A model generated the notes under the pieces. The model was not told the DNA's origin and did not search any database. It worked only from the letters and a program-made list of their open reading frames with translations. Below, piece after piece: positions 3,147-40,597 of a stretch of 64,000 nt of DNA. This DNA is from Candidatus Krumholzibacteriia bacterium (GTDB lineage: Bacteria; Krumholzibacteriota; Krumholzibacteriia; LZORAL124-64-63), in the NCBI GenBank assembly GCA_041390065.1, contig JAWKQQ010000006.1, positions 194 through 64,193 on the forward strand, given 5' to 3'. Every line of letters begins with the position of its first letter. Position 1 is the stretch's first letter. A program made the translations under genes and the position numbers.

Positions 3147-3245
3147 TGGCGGGAACGTGTGGGAATCGAACCCACCTCGGACGGTATGACGCGCCCGACA
3201 GAGGGATTTGAAGTCCCCGGCCGTCACCAGACGACACTCGCTCCC
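3147..3245 (-). tRNA. selC: tRNA-Sec (anticodon TCA)
   Basis: Minus-strand sequence GGGAGCGAGT-GTCGTC-TGGT-GACGGC-C-GGGGA-CTTCAAA-TCCCT-...-GTGGG-TTCGATT-CCCAC-A-CGTTCCC-G-CCA. It has a 6-bp D-stem with a 4-nt D-loop, a UCA anticodon in a canonical 7-nt loop, a long variable arm (7-bp stem TCGGGCG/CGTCCGA), acceptor plus T stems summing to 13 bp, discriminator G and an encoded CCA. Confidence 0.8.
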
Positions 3246-36392: not shown

Positions 36393-36971
36393 TCAGTCGA
36401 ACAGGGCCTTGACCTCGGTCAGGCTGTGGGCTTCGGTCGCCGTCACGCCGCCGCTGTTGAGGGTGGCCACCACGCCACCGAGCGGATTGCCGCTGGTGAG
36501 GAAGCAGGCGATCAGGTCGTCCGGATTGGCGCCGTTGGCGATGCCAGGGCCGGCGGGGCTGAAGCTCGAGGGCGTGGAACCACCCATCGAGATGTCGACC
36601 GCCAGACCGGCGGTGTAGAGCAACTGAACGGTGCACAGCACCGCGGTGTTGTCGCCCGCGACCGGCAGCGGAGTCTGGAAGCCGGCGATGTGGTTGGTGG
36701 GGCTGCCGAAGTTGGTCCAGCCGTTGGCGCCGGTCGCGCTCAGCACGAATACGTTCACGTCCGAGAAGATCAGGGAGCACTCGTAGGCGCCCACCGAACC
36801 GACCGGGGCATCGAGCAGCACGATGTAGGCGTTGAACGGACTGAACCCGGCGTCGAAGTTGGTGTCGTTGTCACCGAAACTCGAGTTGCTGAAGAACACA
36901 CCCATACCGGGCTGCGCGAAGGCGGCGCCGGCCATCAGGGCCACGATGACGAGAGCTAGCAGTTTCTTCAT
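36393..36971 (-). CDS. Small secreted protein, unrecognised family, paralog A
   Basis: ATG at comp(36969-36971) after CAGGAGAGG. MKKLLALVIVALMAGAAFAQ signal. Shared blocks MGVFF, FNAYIVL, GAYE, GWTNFGSPTNHIAGFQTPLP, PSSF, NPDD, ATLNSGG and tail EAHSLTEVKALFD. Confidence 0.8.
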   Translation of the reverse strand: MKKLLALVIVALMAGAAFAQPGMGVFFSNSSFGDNDTNFDAGFSPFNAYIVLLDAPVGSVGAYECSLIFSDVNVFVLSATGANGWTNFGSPTNHIAGFQTPLPVAGDNTAVLCTVQLLYTAGLAVDISMGGSTPSSFSPAGPGIANGANPDDLIACFLTSGNPLGGVVATLNSGGVTATEAHSLTEVKALFD

Positions 36972-37149
36972 GATCCTCTCCTGAAGCAACGCAGGTCCTC
37001 AATCCTTGCCGGGGGAACTCCCTCCCTGCCACCCGCCGCCCGCATCGGCGGGGTGACATCCGGCGCATCCGGGGCTCGGTACGTCCGTGTAGAGCCGTCC
37101 CGTGGCCAAGCTAACCGGATTCCGGCCCGGAGACCGGTTTCACGCGATG

Positions 37150-37178
37150 AATATCCCCGCAAAGTTCGGTCCTGTCAA
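37150..37178 (-). promoter_or_regulatory. Sigma70-like promoter for paralog A
   Basis: Minus strand: TTGACA (comp 37173-37178), N17, GATATT (comp 37150-37155). Implies a ~170-nt structured leader. Confidence 0.45.
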
Positions 37179-37392
37179 GCGCGCAAACCGGATGGTCCAG
37201 CACGCTCCATCTCGGGGAATCACGGCGCCTCTCACGCCCCGTGGATGCGGGCCGCGGCCGTGCGAACTGCATGCCGGAGGGAGTCCGCACGCGCGGAACA
37301 CGGCCTCGGATCGCGCCCCGACGCGGGCACGACCGCCCGCCGGATCGCACACGCCGCAGACGGGGCGACGGCGGCCGGCGGGGATGCGAAGA

Positions 37393-37418
37393 GGCCGCCT
37401 CCCCGGAGGGAGGCGGCC
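37393..37418 (-). terminator. Hairpin after paralog B
   Basis: GGCCGCCTCCC-TCCG-GGGAGGCGGCC on the minus strand, about 25 nt after the stop. The following U-tract is weak (CTCTTCGC). Confidence 0.45.
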
Positions 37419-37440
37419 CGTGACGCGGGATCGCGAGCGG

Positions 37441-38085
37441 TCAGTTGGCGAAGAGAGACTTCACGCCGCGCCAGCTCTGAGCCTCGGTGGCCACGGGGAA
37501 CTCGATGCCCTGGCCGTTGAGGGTGGCGACCAGGCCGCCCATGTCCGGCCCGCTCGTGTAGGTGCAGAGGATGATGTCGTCGACGTTCAGGCCGTTGGCG
37601 ATGGCCGGGCCCGCGCCATTGACGCTGCTGGGGCTCGACGCACCCATGCGGATCTCGACGGTGCTGGAGCTCGTGTTGAGCAGACGCATCTGCGACAGGA
37701 CCGCGGCGACGCCGTAGGTGGGCACGGCGAACTGGAATCCGAACAGGTGATTGGTGTAGTCGCCGAAGTTCGTGCCGCCGTAGGAGAAGCCGTCGGGGTA
37801 GGTGTAGACGCCGCTGTCCCAGGTGGCGTCCGGGCCGGCCAGGCCGAGCACGAACACGCCGGGATCGGAGATCTCCAGGCTGCACTCGTAGGCCGCCACG
37901 GAGATCACGGTCGGGTTGAGCAGCACGATGTACATCTCGAACTCGGTGCCGGGCTCGACGTTCAGGTTGGTGGTGCCGGGGATGAAGCTGGCATCGTCGA
38001 AGAAGACGCCCATGCTGTTCTCGAGCTGAGCGAAGGCGGTTCCGGCGAGCAGAACGACCAGCGCGACCATGATCAAGGTCCTCAT
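37441..38085 (-). CDS. Small secreted protein, unrecognised family, paralog B (longest, most divergent)
   Basis: ATG at comp(38083-38085). MRTLIMVALVVLLAGTAFAQ signal. Shares MGVFF, FEMYIVL, AAYECSL, TNFGDYTNHLFGFQFAVP, PSSV, ATLNGQG and tail EAQSWRGVKSLFAN. Carries an extra DATWDSGVYTYPDGFSYGG insertion. Confidence 0.8.
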   Translation of the reverse strand: MRTLIMVALVVLLAGTAFAQLENSMGVFFDDASFIPGTTNLNVEPGTEFEMYIVLLNPTVISVAAYECSLEISDPGVFVLGLAGPDATWDSGVYTYPDGFSYGGTNFGDYTNHLFGFQFAVPTYGVAAVLSQMRLLNTSSSTVEIRMGASSPSSVNGAGPAIANGLNVDDIILCTYTSGPDMGGLVATLNGQGIEFPVATEAQSWRGVKSLFAN

Positions 38086-38293
38086 TGTTCTCGTCTCCCT
38101 GGTGCGGCGCAGGTCTGGACACTGTTCAACCCGGCCGATCATCGTCTGCACAGCCGCCTGCACCGGCTGTGCGGACCGACGGTGCGAGACGACCGTCGAC
38201 GACCAGGTTCCGAAGCTTGATAACCATGCATCGAAAATGATGTTTGGTCAACCCTATGTACGCGGATGCTGCCAAAAGGTTGCGTAGATGCTG

Positions 38294-38346
38294 AAAAAAA
38301 CAACGTCTGGTGATGACGCGAACGCCCCGGGCAGGGCCCGGGGCGT
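38294..38346 (-). terminator. Tandem-hairpin terminator after paralog C
   Basis: Minus strand: ACGCCCCGGGC-CCT-GCCCGGGGCGT, then CGTC-ATCACCA-GACG, followed by TTGTTTTTTT. Confidence 0.6.
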
Positions 38347-38379
38347 CGCACTGTCGTGTCAGCTGGTCGCAGGAACGAC

Positions 38380-38976
38380 CTAGTTGAACAGGGCCTTCAC
38401 GGCGGAGAGGCTGTGCGCCTCGGCGGCCACGCCACCGGGGAACGTGATGCCGTCGCCGTTCAGGGTGGCCACGAGGCCGCCCATGTCCGGGCCGCTGGTG
38501 TAGTTGCAGACGTAGAGGATGTCGGGGTTGCTACCGTCGGCCAGGGCCGGGCCGGCGCCGCCCACGCTGCTCGGGCTCGAGGGGCCCATGCGGACTTCGA
38601 CCAGGTCGTTGGCGGTGTAGAGCATCTGGATCGTCGACATGACCGCGTAGCCAGCGGAGCTCGGCAGCGGGGTCTGGAAGCCGGCGAGGTGGTTGGTGTT
38701 GCTGCCGAAGTTGGTCCAGCCGTTGGGGCCGGAGACGCTCAGCAGGAACACGGCGGGGTTGCTGATCTCGATGCCGACCTCGTAGGCGCCGATGGTGAAC
38801 ATCGTGGTCTGGATCACGGCGATGTAGGCGTTGAACGGAGCGGCGCCGTTGTCGAGGTTGGTGTTGGCCTCGGTGAGGTCGCTGTCGGAGAAGAACATGC
38901 CCATGCTGTTGTCCAGCTGAGCGAAGGCGGAACCGGCCATCAGAGCCACGAGGGCAAGCGTTAGCAGGGTCTTCAT
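38380..38976 (-). CDS. Small secreted protein, unrecognised family, paralog C
   Basis: MKTLLTLALVALMAGSAFAQ signal. Shares MGMFF, FNAYIAV, GAYE, GWTNFGSNTNHLAGFQTPLP, PSSV, NPD, ATLNGDG and tail EAHSLSAVKALFN. Confidence 0.85.
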   Translation of the reverse strand: MKTLLTLALVALMAGSAFAQLDNSMGMFFSDSDLTEANTNLDNGAAPFNAYIAVIQTTMFTIGAYEVGIEISNPAVFLLSVSGPNGWTNFGSNTNHLAGFQTPLPSSAGYAVMSTIQMLYTANDLVEVRMGPSSPSSVGGAGPALADGSNPDILYVCNYTSGPDMGGLVATLNGDGITFPGGVAAEAHSLSAVKALFN

Positions 38977-39113
38977 GGATTGAACTCCCGGTGCAATGCA
39001 GGTGGGGAAATCAGCGCCGGGGAACTGGTTTCCCCAACAGCCGGCGGCCTGCGTCTACCGGCTAGCGCGACAGTGAAACTGCGTGTGGCCCCGTGGCCAC
39101 TTGATCTTGAACG

Positions 39114-39142
39114 ATTCTACAAGTGATGGGCGAAGATGTCAA
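39114..39142 (-). promoter_or_regulatory. Sigma70-like promoter for paralog C
   Basis: Minus strand: TTGACA (comp 39137-39142), N17, TAGAAT (comp 39114-39119), in a locally AT-richer spacer. Implies a ~130-nt leader. Confidence 0.55.
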
Positions 39143-39192
39143 TAATCGATCCACCACCCACGAGAATCTTTTACATTGTCAAACGAGTGTAC

Positions 39193-39232
39193 AAAACCAA
39201 TAAAAACCGCCCCGGGGATCGCCCCGGGGCGG
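39193..39232 (-). terminator. Rho-independent terminator after paralog D
   Basis: Perfect 11-bp stem CCGCCCCGGGG-CGAT-CCCCGGGGCGG followed by TTTTTATTGGTTTTG on the minus strand. Confidence 0.75.
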
Positions 39233-39256
39233 TACATGCGATCAGCGCTCCCGATC

Positions 39257-39862
39257 TCAGTCGAAGAGGGCCTTGACGTCGCTGAGGCTGTGGGCCTCGG
39301 TCGCCACCACGCCGTCGCCGTTGATGGTGGCCACGTAGCCGCCGTCGCTGGTGAGCGGGCAAGCGATCAGGTTGTCCGGGTTGGCGCCGTCGGCGATGCC
39401 CGGGGTCGGGGGGTTGAAGCTCGAGGGGGTCGCGGCCCCGAGGTTGATGAACACGGTCGGGACGCCGGTGTACAGCATCTGGATCGTGCAGAGCACCGCG
39501 CCATCGGCGCAGGGCAGCGGGGTCTGGAAGCCGGCCAGGTGGTTGGACGGGGTGCCGAAGTTGGTCCAGCCGTTGGGGCCGGTGACGGCCAGCAGGAACG
39601 GGGCGCCGCCGTCGAAGGTGACGCTGGTCTCGTAGGCCGCGACGCTGGCGACCGTCGGGTTGACCAGGACGATGTAGGCGTTGAACGGGGCGAAGGCGTT
39701 CACGAAGTTGGTGTTGGGGTTCATGCCGCCATCAGCGATGGACTCGTTGATCACACCCAGGTCGTTCGTGAAGAACATACCGATCATGTTGTCTTCGCTC
39801 GTCTGAGCGAGGGCGCCGGCAGCCATGAGGGCCACCAGGGCCAGAACTAGCAATTTCTTCAT
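39257..39862 (-). CDS. Small secreted protein, unrecognised family, paralog D
   Basis: ATG at comp(39860-39862) after CAGGAGAGC. MKKLLVLALVALMAAGALAQ signal. Shares GMFF, FNAYIVL, AAYE, GWTNFGTPSNHLAGFQTPLP, PSSF, NPDN, ATINGDG and tail EAHSLSDVKALFD. The 241-aa ORF extension upstream is rejected. Confidence 0.8.
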   Translation of the reverse strand: MKKLLVLALVALMAAGALAQTSEDNMIGMFFTNDLGVINESIADGGMNPNTNFVNAFAPFNAYIVLVNPTVASVAAYETSVTFDGGAPFLLAVTGPNGWTNFGTPSNHLAGFQTPLPCADGAVLCTIQMLYTGVPTVFINLGAATPSSFNPPTPGIADGANPDNLIACPLTSDGGYVATINGDGVVATEAHSLSDVKALFD

Positions 39863-39916
39863 TGTTGCTCTCCTGAAGCAGCGCAGGTCACGGTTGCGGA
39901 GCCGTCGGGAAATCCC

Positions 39917-39949
39917 TGCTGCCCCGCCGCCTGCATCGGCGGGGCAGCA
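39917..39949 (-). promoter_or_regulatory. 13-bp-stem hairpin between the dockerin gene and paralog D (terminator and/or first element of the paralog leader motif)
   Basis: Minus strand: TGCTGCCCCGCCG-ATGCAGG-CGGCGGGGCAGCA, 34 nt after the dockerin-gene stop. Related hairpins sit upstream of paralogs A, B and C. Confidence 0.5.
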
Positions 39950-39982
39950 ACCGGCACTTGGTCGGGCCCGGTCCAGAAGCAA

Positions 39983-40597
39983 CTAGTTGCAGCTGGTGCC
40001 GATGCCCTGGGTGAAACGCGCCACGTCGGACAGGTTGATGATGCCGTCGTTGTTGAAGTCGGCATCATACGTGTAGGTGGCGAGCGCCTGCGTGAAGGTC
40101 GCGACGTCCGACAGGTTCACGATGAGGTCACCGTTGATGTCGGCACTGTTGAACGTGAGGGACAGGCCCGCACCGGCCAGAGGAGCGCCGGCCACGATGA
40201 CCCGCGTGGTCTCGCCAGCCGAGTTGCCACCGGCAGCCAACGGGTTGGACCAGGTGGTCATGCCGTCGATGTCGGTGGACGCGTCGGCAGCGGTGCCGCC
40301 GTCACAGAACGTGAGGCCGCCGAGGGACGTCTCGAGCCACAGATCCTCGAACGGATAGCCGAAGATCGGGTCGCCCGTGGTGTCGATCAGGGTCAGGGTG
40401 ATGGTGGCGTCAACCGTGCCACCGACACCGAAGGCCTGGTCGAGGGCCACGCCGGCCCCGTTGGGAAGGTTGAAGACACTGGCGCCGTTGGCAGCAGGGT
40501 CGATGGAAGCAGTCGACGTGTTGAGGTCGGGAACGCCGGCCCAAGCAATGGAAGCCAGGCTCACGACCAGCGCGCCGAGCAAGAACCTACGAAGCAT
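39983..40597 (-). CDS. Secreted protein with C-terminal dockerin-type (EF-hand-like) repeat pair
   Basis: GGAGGTG upstream of the ATG at comp(40595-40597). Signal MLRRFLLGALVVSLASIAWAG. C-terminus DINGDLIVNLSDVATFTQAL...DFNNDGIINLSDVARFTQGIG is two dockerin-like calcium-binding segments. The N-terminal ~130-aa domain is unassigned. Confidence 0.75.
   Translation of the reverse strand: MLRRFLLGALVVSLASIAWAGVPDLNTSTASIDPAANGASVFNLPNGAGVALDQAFGVGGTVDATITLTLIDTTGDPIFGYPFEDLWLETSLGGLTFCDGGTAADASTDIDGMTTWSNPLAAGGNSAGETTRVIVAGAPLAGAGLSLTFNSADINGDLIVNLSDVATFTQALATYTYDADFNNDGIINLSDVARFTQGIGTSCN

Follow-up and report, generated by a model that had tools for sequence, protein, structure and literature searches.

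Translation of repZ depends on a pseudoknot that lies just upstream of the ribosome binding site, and an antisense RNA blocks it (reviewed in PMC8383071). Here we analysed a stretch of 64,000 nucleotides from a Candidatus Krumholzibacteriia bacterium (GenBank assembly GCA_041390065.1, contig JAWKQQ010000006.1, positions 194 to 64,193; the whole stretch is called the window below), in which four paralogous genes for secreted proteins with a predicted cohesin-like fold, A to D, are each preceded by the same ordered elements: a hairpin (P1) with GCRGG in its loop, a box ACCUGC, a Shine-Dalgarno (SD) sequence and the start codon. This leader is a new structured cis-acting element of Krumholzibacteriota that is absent from Rfam. 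We consider it rather probable that the mRNA of every paralog carries such a structured leader of about 100 nt, with a pseudoknot between loop and box at the ribosome binding site and a post-transcriptional role.

In the repZ and repA leaders of IncI-alpha and IncB plasmids, as is proposed for the leaders described here, a short complementary sequence immediately 5' of the ribosome binding site pairs with a hairpin loop further upstream (PMC8383071). The competitor for the repZ loop is the antisense Inc RNA, which shuts translation off (PMC8383071). By analogy, the repZ/repA pseudoknot appears to be the closest match to our leaders in layout and likely logic, although there is no sequence or family relationship between them. 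Further details of that pseudoknot are reportedly given by Asano and Mizobuchi 1998. Unlike repZ, the leaders of the window have no leader peptide to be translated first; no upstream open reading frame is conserved, nor is the AUG found in the loop, and we therefore rejected a leader peptide as an explanation. A promoter scan also detected no antisense promoter on the plus strand, and the hairpin belongs to a three-way junction (helices P0, P1 and P2) that stands before chromosomal genes for secreted proteins. If real, the element would add a chromosomal case to the few leaders in which an SD-adjacent pseudoknot governs translation.

Pairing between a loop and a 3' strand that lies at, or includes, the SD sequence is also found in other small leader RNAs, namely the preQ1-II, SAM-II, SAM-V, fluoride and NAD+-II riboswitches. 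In our leaders, in contrast, the pseudoknot strand would lie upstream of the SD sequence and leave it uncovered, no Rfam family matches the junction up to an E-value of 10, nothing like a conserved pocket can be seen and the products are secreted structural proteins in place of metabolic or transport functions. With junction strands and a P2 loop that are variable, and with cohesin-like secreted proteins as the products, a riboswitch is unlikely.

CsrA sites are defined by a GGA core, and in the Bacillus hag leader one such site lies in a hairpin loop and another over the SD sequence. The present leaders are similar in that the loop GCAGG resembles the SD sequence CAGGAG, approximately 50-60 nt away, and in that genes for abundant exported proteins follow. 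Unlike a CsrA site as generally described, however, the loop has no GGA core: it reads NNGCRGG (CAGG, then the closing C), and GGA occurs only at the SD sequence, which speaks against a CsrA/RsmA leader. A further likeness is to the ompA 5' untranslated region (5' UTR), S-layer leaders and the cry3A STAB-SD, which belong to highly expressed envelope or secreted proteins. Their 5' UTRs are usually described as long and folded, with hairpins near the 5' end and purine runs that resemble an SD sequence (here GGGAGG in the A-type P2). These 5' stabilisers are described without an invariant loop that pairs with an invariant SD-adjacent box.

The leaders and their three-way junction

Protein-guided scans and look-ups yielded 61 related loci, and upstream of homologous genes, in at least a dozen assemblies, we found 41 distinct leaders in which these elements follow each other in the same order. 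The first set of leaders was selected by requiring the loop and box motifs; the later covariance searches were made without that requirement. All of these leaders sort into four subtypes, the same as those of the paralogs in the window, which indicates that the elements were inherited together with the genes. Since the four paralog proteins are just 42-57% identical to each other, the shared non-coding elements are no remnant of a recent duplication. Two covariance models were used: R1, built from 23 A- and D-type leaders with a structure given by hand and the sequences then realigned, and R2, built from leaders of all types.

When single sequences were folded without constraints, the minimum free energy (MFE) structure of most A-, C- and D-type leaders placed P1 in a three-way junction with P0 and P2, so that the hairpin recognised in the preliminary description of this DNA is one arm of a larger fold. 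P0 is a helix of 4-6 bp that encloses P1 and P2 (GCCGG/CCGGC in types A and D, GCGC/GCGC in type C), and P2, a short hairpin, is rich in G on its 5' side and in C on its 3' side. Read from 5' to 3', the leader consists of the junction, a variable linker of 10-25 nt, the box (R)CCUGC, the SD sequence 7-9 nt further on and the AUG, approximately 100 nt in all. The elements of the four leaders in the window are as follows.

37055-37030, minus strand: hairpin P1 of leader A, imperfect stem, loop ATGCGGG (GCGGG at 37043-37039)
38172-38148, minus strand: hairpin P1 of leader B, 9 bp, loop GTGCAGG (GCAGG at 38161-38157)
39063-39039, minus strand: hairpin P1 of leader C, loop ACGCAGG (GCAGG at 39052-39048), one A.C mismatch beside the closing pair
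39949-39917, minus strand: hairpin P1 of leader D, 13 bp, loop ATGCAGG (GCAGG at 39934-39930)
36996-36991 (A), 38114-38109 (B), 39003-38998 (C) and 39888-39883 (D), minus strand: ACCTGC boxes
36983-36978 (A, CAGGAG) and 38101-38095 (B, CAGGGAG), minus strand: SD sequences
38990-38985 (C, CGGGAG) and 39875-39870 (D, CAGGAG), minus strand: SD sequences
36971-36969 (A), 38085-38083 (B), 38976-38974 (C) and 39862-39860 (D), minus strand: AUG start codons
36969..37069, minus strand: core of leader A, 93.2 bits with R1 (E = 2e-23), three-way junction in the single-sequence MFE structure
37064-37060 (GCCGG) with 37012-37008 (CCGGC), minus strand: P0 of leader A
37026-37022 (GGGAG) with 37017-37013 (UUCCC), minus strand: P2 of leader A
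38083..38188, minus strand: core of leader B, 32.8 bits with R1 and 49.5 bits with R2, P0 and P2 less clear on MFE folding
38974..39076, minus strand: core of leader C, 40 bits with R1 and 64.7 bits with R2, junction in the MFE structure
39068-39065 (GCGC) with 39017-39014 (GCGC), minus strand: P0 of leader C
39035-39030 (GGGGAA) with 39024-39019 (UUCCCC), minus strand: P2 of leader C
39860..39960, minus strand: core of leader D, 99 bits with R1, MFE z-score -2.9, in the spacer after a dockerin-like gene
39955-39952 (GCCG) with 39904-39901 (CGGC), minus strand: P0 of leader D
39916-39913 (GGGA) with 39910-39907 (UCCC), minus strand: P2 of leader D

Hairpins, ACCTGC boxes, SD sequences and start codons of all four paralogs were thus found, reading the minus strand, where the preliminary description had placed them, and the four upstream regions align across hairpin, box and SD elements. 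The gap of 35-50 nt that it had given between hairpin and box is borne out when counted from the loop (47-50 nt) and amounts to 28-35 nt from the 3' end of the hairpin. The minus strand of the window holds six copies of the extended box ACCTGC[AG][CT][CT]GC, four in the leaders and two inside coding sequence, and the plus strand has none.

Support for the three-way junction is good. In the model-guided alignment, 21 of the 22 pairs of P0, P1 and P2 show compensatory changes and 90% of the cells are paired, compared with 35-46% when the partners are slid by 1-3 columns; shuffling reached the observed values in none of 500 trials. A structure-blind MAFFT alignment gave covarying pairs in P1 (10 of 12) and P2 (4 of 5), with 83% of the cells paired against 35-50% in the slid controls. 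The stem of P1, for which an alignment of the leaders with homologous loci had been proposed as a check, therefore does covary, and it occurs in at least 20 different sequences. A conserved secondary structure with compensatory changes is the general mark of a structured cis-regulatory mRNA leader. Sequence and length differ from leader to leader in the junction strands and in the loop of P2. RNAalifold, applied to the raw MAFFT alignment of all types, returned the helix between loop and box alone because the stems are misaligned there.

Model R1 picked up C- and B-type leaders that were absent from its training set. Throughout approximately 390 kb of related loci all of its matches with E < 0.01 stop exactly at the ATG of a paralog, and R2 agrees. 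A covariance search of the window with filters off, a test that had been suggested at the outset, found the four leaders only (99, 93, 40 and 33 bits), the next best site scoring 12.7 bits (E = 0.12, with 128 kb of strand searched). Taken together with the covariation, this specificity supports the earlier view that the leaders are conserved for a function and do not resemble each other by chance. On a practical matter, the covariance model is directly usable for annotating such loci in metagenomes.

Searching the whole window with Rfam 15 at the gathering thresholds returned tRNAs only. A scan of 36900-40100 with E-values up to 10 gave eight weak matches (15.7-21.1 bits), all far under their thresholds; none of them covers a junction, and an ArcZ match reaches just the start codon of A and the spacer. 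We found no paper in the literature that ties Krumholzibacteria to RNA motifs. If real, the leader would be an uncatalogued structured RNA with unusually clean comparative support, from a phylum known only from metagenomes.

The leaders of related genes in two other lineages have AUCUGC in place of ACCUGC and no clear P1 hairpin (L056, 320-438, and L058, 4904-5003). They represent a degenerate or an alternative form of the motif, in which the C-to-U change would still allow pairing with G. The polarity of P2 is also fixed, with an SD-like GGGAG in the 5' strand and an anti-SD-like CUCCC in the 3' strand (37013-37026, 39019-39035 and 39907-39916), and its two core pairs are G-C in 33 of the 41 distinct leaders. 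This suggests that the role of P2 is sequence-specific and goes beyond the formation of a helix.

Loop, box and their likely role

The loop of P1 has 7 nt, NNGCRGG, and the pair directly closing it is G-C in 35 of 38 leaders. Wherever both sites are represented by sequence, in 39 distinct leaders, its GCRGG is complementary to the CCUGC of the box; as noted in the preliminary description, the GCGGG of the A type still pairs through G-U. Four pairs of this helix are invariant and the fifth changes on one side only, from A to G opposite U. The duplex is predicted at -6.1 to -6.8 kcal/mol, or approximately -2.6 net after the opening cost, topology and stacking terms excluded. From loop to box the distance varies between 40 and 55 nt, which suits an RNA tertiary contact. 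In the classical H-type pseudoknot two unpaired bases are followed by pairing bases that lie flush against the 3' arm of the hairpin. Our loops have this geometry, with two unpaired and five pairing bases and no spacer before the 3' arm; they are complementary to a downstream single strand, and the loop lengths permit an H-type pseudoknot.

In the reading that we favour, the five 3' bases of the loop would pair with the box to give an H-type pseudoknot stacked on P1, which would bring the junction up against the ribosome binding site on its 5' side. The fold would then act post-transcriptionally, on translation initiation, on mRNA lifetime or on both, for secreted cohesin-like proteins that are made coordinately. 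Most likely the pseudoknotted form would be the translated state and the leader would tune the amount of protein. If real, the design of an invariant loop and box among drifting stems points to control at the ribosome binding site, and it would offer a handle on how these bacteria set the amounts of the cohesin-like secreted proteins, whose genes form a tandem family beside a dockerin-like gene and that of a gingipain-type peptidase.

That loop and box are frozen while all stems drift points to a third constraint common to all paralogs. A contact between two partners could have covaried, and the invariance of both suggests a third partner. This might be sequence close to the SD or at the beginning of the coding region, or else an RNA or protein that acts in trans and competes for loop or box. 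Conservation indeed extends further than had been described, into the coding region as far as codon 5:

36957-36959 (A), 38962-38964 (C) and 39848-39850 (D), minus strand: codon 5, CUA (Leu)

Codon 5 is CTA in 32 of the 34 leaders that have leucine at this position. In seven genes of the window CTA makes up only 4 of 297 leucine codons, and three of these four are codon 5. The pattern points to a constraint in the first codons at the level of the RNA or of rare codons, and it fits a third constraint that reaches early coding sequence. A tie between the rare CUA and an adjacent tRNA gene was rejected, as that gene encodes tRNA-Val.

Carried further, the same observations would allow for a new class of translational switch, controlled in trans, that coordinates all the paralogous surface proteins, a shared factor reading loop or box to decide on pseudoknot formation and the control reaching the CUA of codon 5. 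We put this forward tentatively, as a possibility. Candidates for the factor would be small RNAs, ligands and RNA-binding proteins that signal how secretion or surface assembly is proceeding. If this were true, cohesin-like proteins would be made in step with the state of a cohesin-dockerin-like surface system of Krumholzibacteriota.

Several points weigh against a pseudoknotted regulatory leader and temper our preference for it. No pair between loop and box covaries among the 39 leaders, so that of the layout proposed in the preliminary description the strict conservation, the complementarity and the H-type geometry stand and the covariation of this helix is absent; it is the former three that make the pseudoknot probable. 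The initial set of leaders was biased by requiring both motifs, and the count of covarying pairs comes partly from alignments fitted to the model. Single-sequence z-scores are modest, from -0.7 to -2.9, and uninformative at the 70% G+C of this genome. P0 and P2 fit the B-type leaders poorly, and in more distant members of the family the motif is absent or degenerate. Both the existence and the direction of the regulation are what we infer from sequence.

The preliminary description had also suggested the layout of a switch of the anti-SD/anti-anti-SD type. In such a switch pairing of the box with the SD flank would turn translation off and pairing with the P1 loop would turn it on, with a signal such as temperature, a ligand or a trans factor selecting between them. 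We regard this as doubtful. Both pairings of the box are available in 99-100% of the leaders, that of CCUG with the CRGG of the SD flank in 99% of cells. The box-SD hairpin is the MFE structure of its isolated 22-nt segment, at -3.1 to -4.3 kcal/mol on its own, and RNAalifold selects it in C-type leaders. Moreover, a box that matches two partners, one of them tied to 16S rRNA via the SD sequence, would account for the invariance of loop and box. However, the box-SD helix has 4 bp only and covers just two bases of GGAG, no compensatory change occurs in it across the leaders, and in full leaders its mean probability in the ensemble is 0.03. To mimic the pseudoknot, loop and box were kept single-stranded in the calculation; the SD sequence then cost as much to open as before (3.6 vs 3.6 kcal/mol). 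The bases of the junction are unconserved, so that no pocket for a ligand can be made out. For the A and D types RNAalifold instead favours pairing of the box region with the AUG and the codons that follow it, a predicted hairpin that shows no compensatory change either, and type C uses different pairings. The accessibility of the SD sequence is thus unaffected in these calculations, the anti-SD arrangement is not supported, and a switch function is unproven.

Predicted position in the transcript and alternative readings

Scanning the minus strand of the region for near-consensus sigma-70 promoters gave three, against 0.4 expected, located before C, before A and before the peptidase gene. The predicted promoters and the 5'-proximal elements that follow them are:

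37178-37150, minus strand: promoter of A from the scan, TTGACA-17-GATATT, part of 37070..37178
about 37143-37065, minus strand: extra 5' domain of the A type, conserved in orthologs
39142-39114, minus strand: promoter of C from the scan, TTGACA-17-TAGAAT, 11 of 12 matches
39100-39085, minus strand: 5'-proximal hairpin of C, GUGGCC/GGCCAC, with compensatory changes in orthologs

The promoters, which the preliminary description does not mention, are conserved in orthologs. Hexamers and spacing of the A promoter are identical in all 11 A-type orthologs. A scan of the C-type orthologs (TTG-N3, a spacer of 16-18 nt and a -10 hexamer) found the C promoter in six of the seven closest ones; the seventh has the same hexamers with an 18-nt spacer, and the distant L045 lacks it. 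With conserved promoters upstream, junction, box and SD sequence would lie inside predicted 5' UTRs of approximately 130 nt (C) and 170 nt (A). Judged by these predicted starts, the element stands on the sense strand, in the 5' UTR and at a fixed position relative to the ATG of one gene family.

The D-type element lies 17-50 nt after the stop codon of the dockerin-like gene, and 11 of 12 D-type loci have no conserved promoter. D is therefore probably co-transcribed with that gene. Terminators were located by scan after the D and C genes.

Given such transcripts, the leaders might instead be static stabilisers or insulators, in which a GC-rich junction, with or without the pseudoknot, would act with the 5'-proximal hairpins to shield abundant mRNAs from 5'-end-dependent decay, without any switching; in type D the element would mark a boundary of processing and stability within the dockerin-paralog transcript. 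The strong consensus promoters and the terminators found by scan, the covarying 5'-proximal hairpin of type C and the location of the D-type element in an intercistronic spacer without a promoter of its own, where P1 has a G+C-rich stem of 12-14 bp, are all consistent with this. A stabiliser, however, needs neither an invariant loop together with a complementary invariant box at a set distance from the SD sequence nor a conserved loop length of 7 nt, and we consider it unlikely as the whole explanation of the leaders.

A role at the level of DNA, finally, is very improbable. Here the GCAGG...CCTGC inverted repeat would be bound by a dimeric transcription factor, or would be an extragenic palindrome that has spread between genes, and the pentamers are indeed mutually reverse-complementary and recur before all four genes. 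Three findings, though, disfavour the protein-binding inverted repeat that had been offered as an alternative at the outset: the spacing of the pentamers ranges continuously from 40 to 55 bp, one of the two half-sites is in every case the loop sequence of an RNA hairpin whose stem covaries, and conserved promoters upstream of the region place it inside the transcript. G-U cells outnumber A-C cells (49 vs 29), a modest lean to the sense strand. A mobile repeat or repetitive extragenic palindromic (REP) element was rejected because the window holds no further copies and because the leader subtypes track the paralog subtypes in other genomes, as is expected of inheritance and not of spread.

Two further candidates were tried at the same sites. 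P1 is not an intrinsic terminator or attenuator, since no U run follows it and the terminator scan reports it in no leader, and a sigma-54 or other promoter at the box was rejected by eye because the GG-N10-GC spacing is not present.

The upstream parts of the leaders differ between the types. The sequence TGGCCACGGG, common to A and C, belongs to the 5'-proximal hairpins, which differ between these two types. The extra 5' domain of the A type (approximately 80 nt, 37065-37143 on the minus strand) is highly conserved in sequence among orthologs, e.g. GGCUCUACACGGACGUACCGAGCC, and its CCGG element could be a rival of the 5' strand of P0. The GUGGCC/GGCCAC hairpin of C begins approximately 7 nt past the predicted start site, a position typical of 5' mRNA stabilisers. 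Upstream of the B type, TTGACCAAWCATCAYWTTTGATGCATKGTT near 38212-38242 (minus strand) is common to three of six regions (the window, L016/L014, and L044 near 5921). In it a -35-like hexamer precedes the inverted repeat CATCA...TGATG, the -10 region being poor, and it could be an operator specific to the B-type paralogs.

The paralogs and their locus

The four genes are arranged head to tail and encode secreted proteins of 192-214 residues:

36393-36971, minus strand: paralog A, start codon at 36971
37441-38085, minus strand: paralog B, start codon at 38085
38380-38976, minus strand: paralog C, start codon at 38976
39257-39862, minus strand: paralog D, start codon at 39862

None of the four proteins matched a family in Pfam or NCBIfam. 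The structure model of paralog C (predicted local distance difference test, pLDDT, of 86) finds cohesin modules in the PDB at E-values of approximately 1e-4, with target template modelling scores (TM-scores) of 0.53-0.68, and on the strength of this model the paralogs A, B, C and D appear to have a cohesin-like beta-sandwich fold. Just upstream of the array, the gene at 39983-40597 encodes a domain that weakly resembles dockerin (21 bits, with the cut-off at 22.9), and downstream of it a peptidase C25 of 1442 residues is encoded. Paralogs, dockerin-like gene and peptidase C25 together look like a cohesin-dockerin-type surface system of Krumholzibacteriota. Homologues of the paralogs were found only in metagenomes and in metagenome-assembled genomes labelled Krumholzibacteria or Krumholzibacteriota.

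At several other loci (L042, L044 and L051-L054) the genes stand in the same order: YceG, a small membrane protein, the dockerin-like gene, the array of paralogs and peptidase C25. Elsewhere in the window, a gene for a selenocysteine tRNA lies on the minus strand, at 3151-3245 according to Rfam and 3147-3245 according to ARAGORN.

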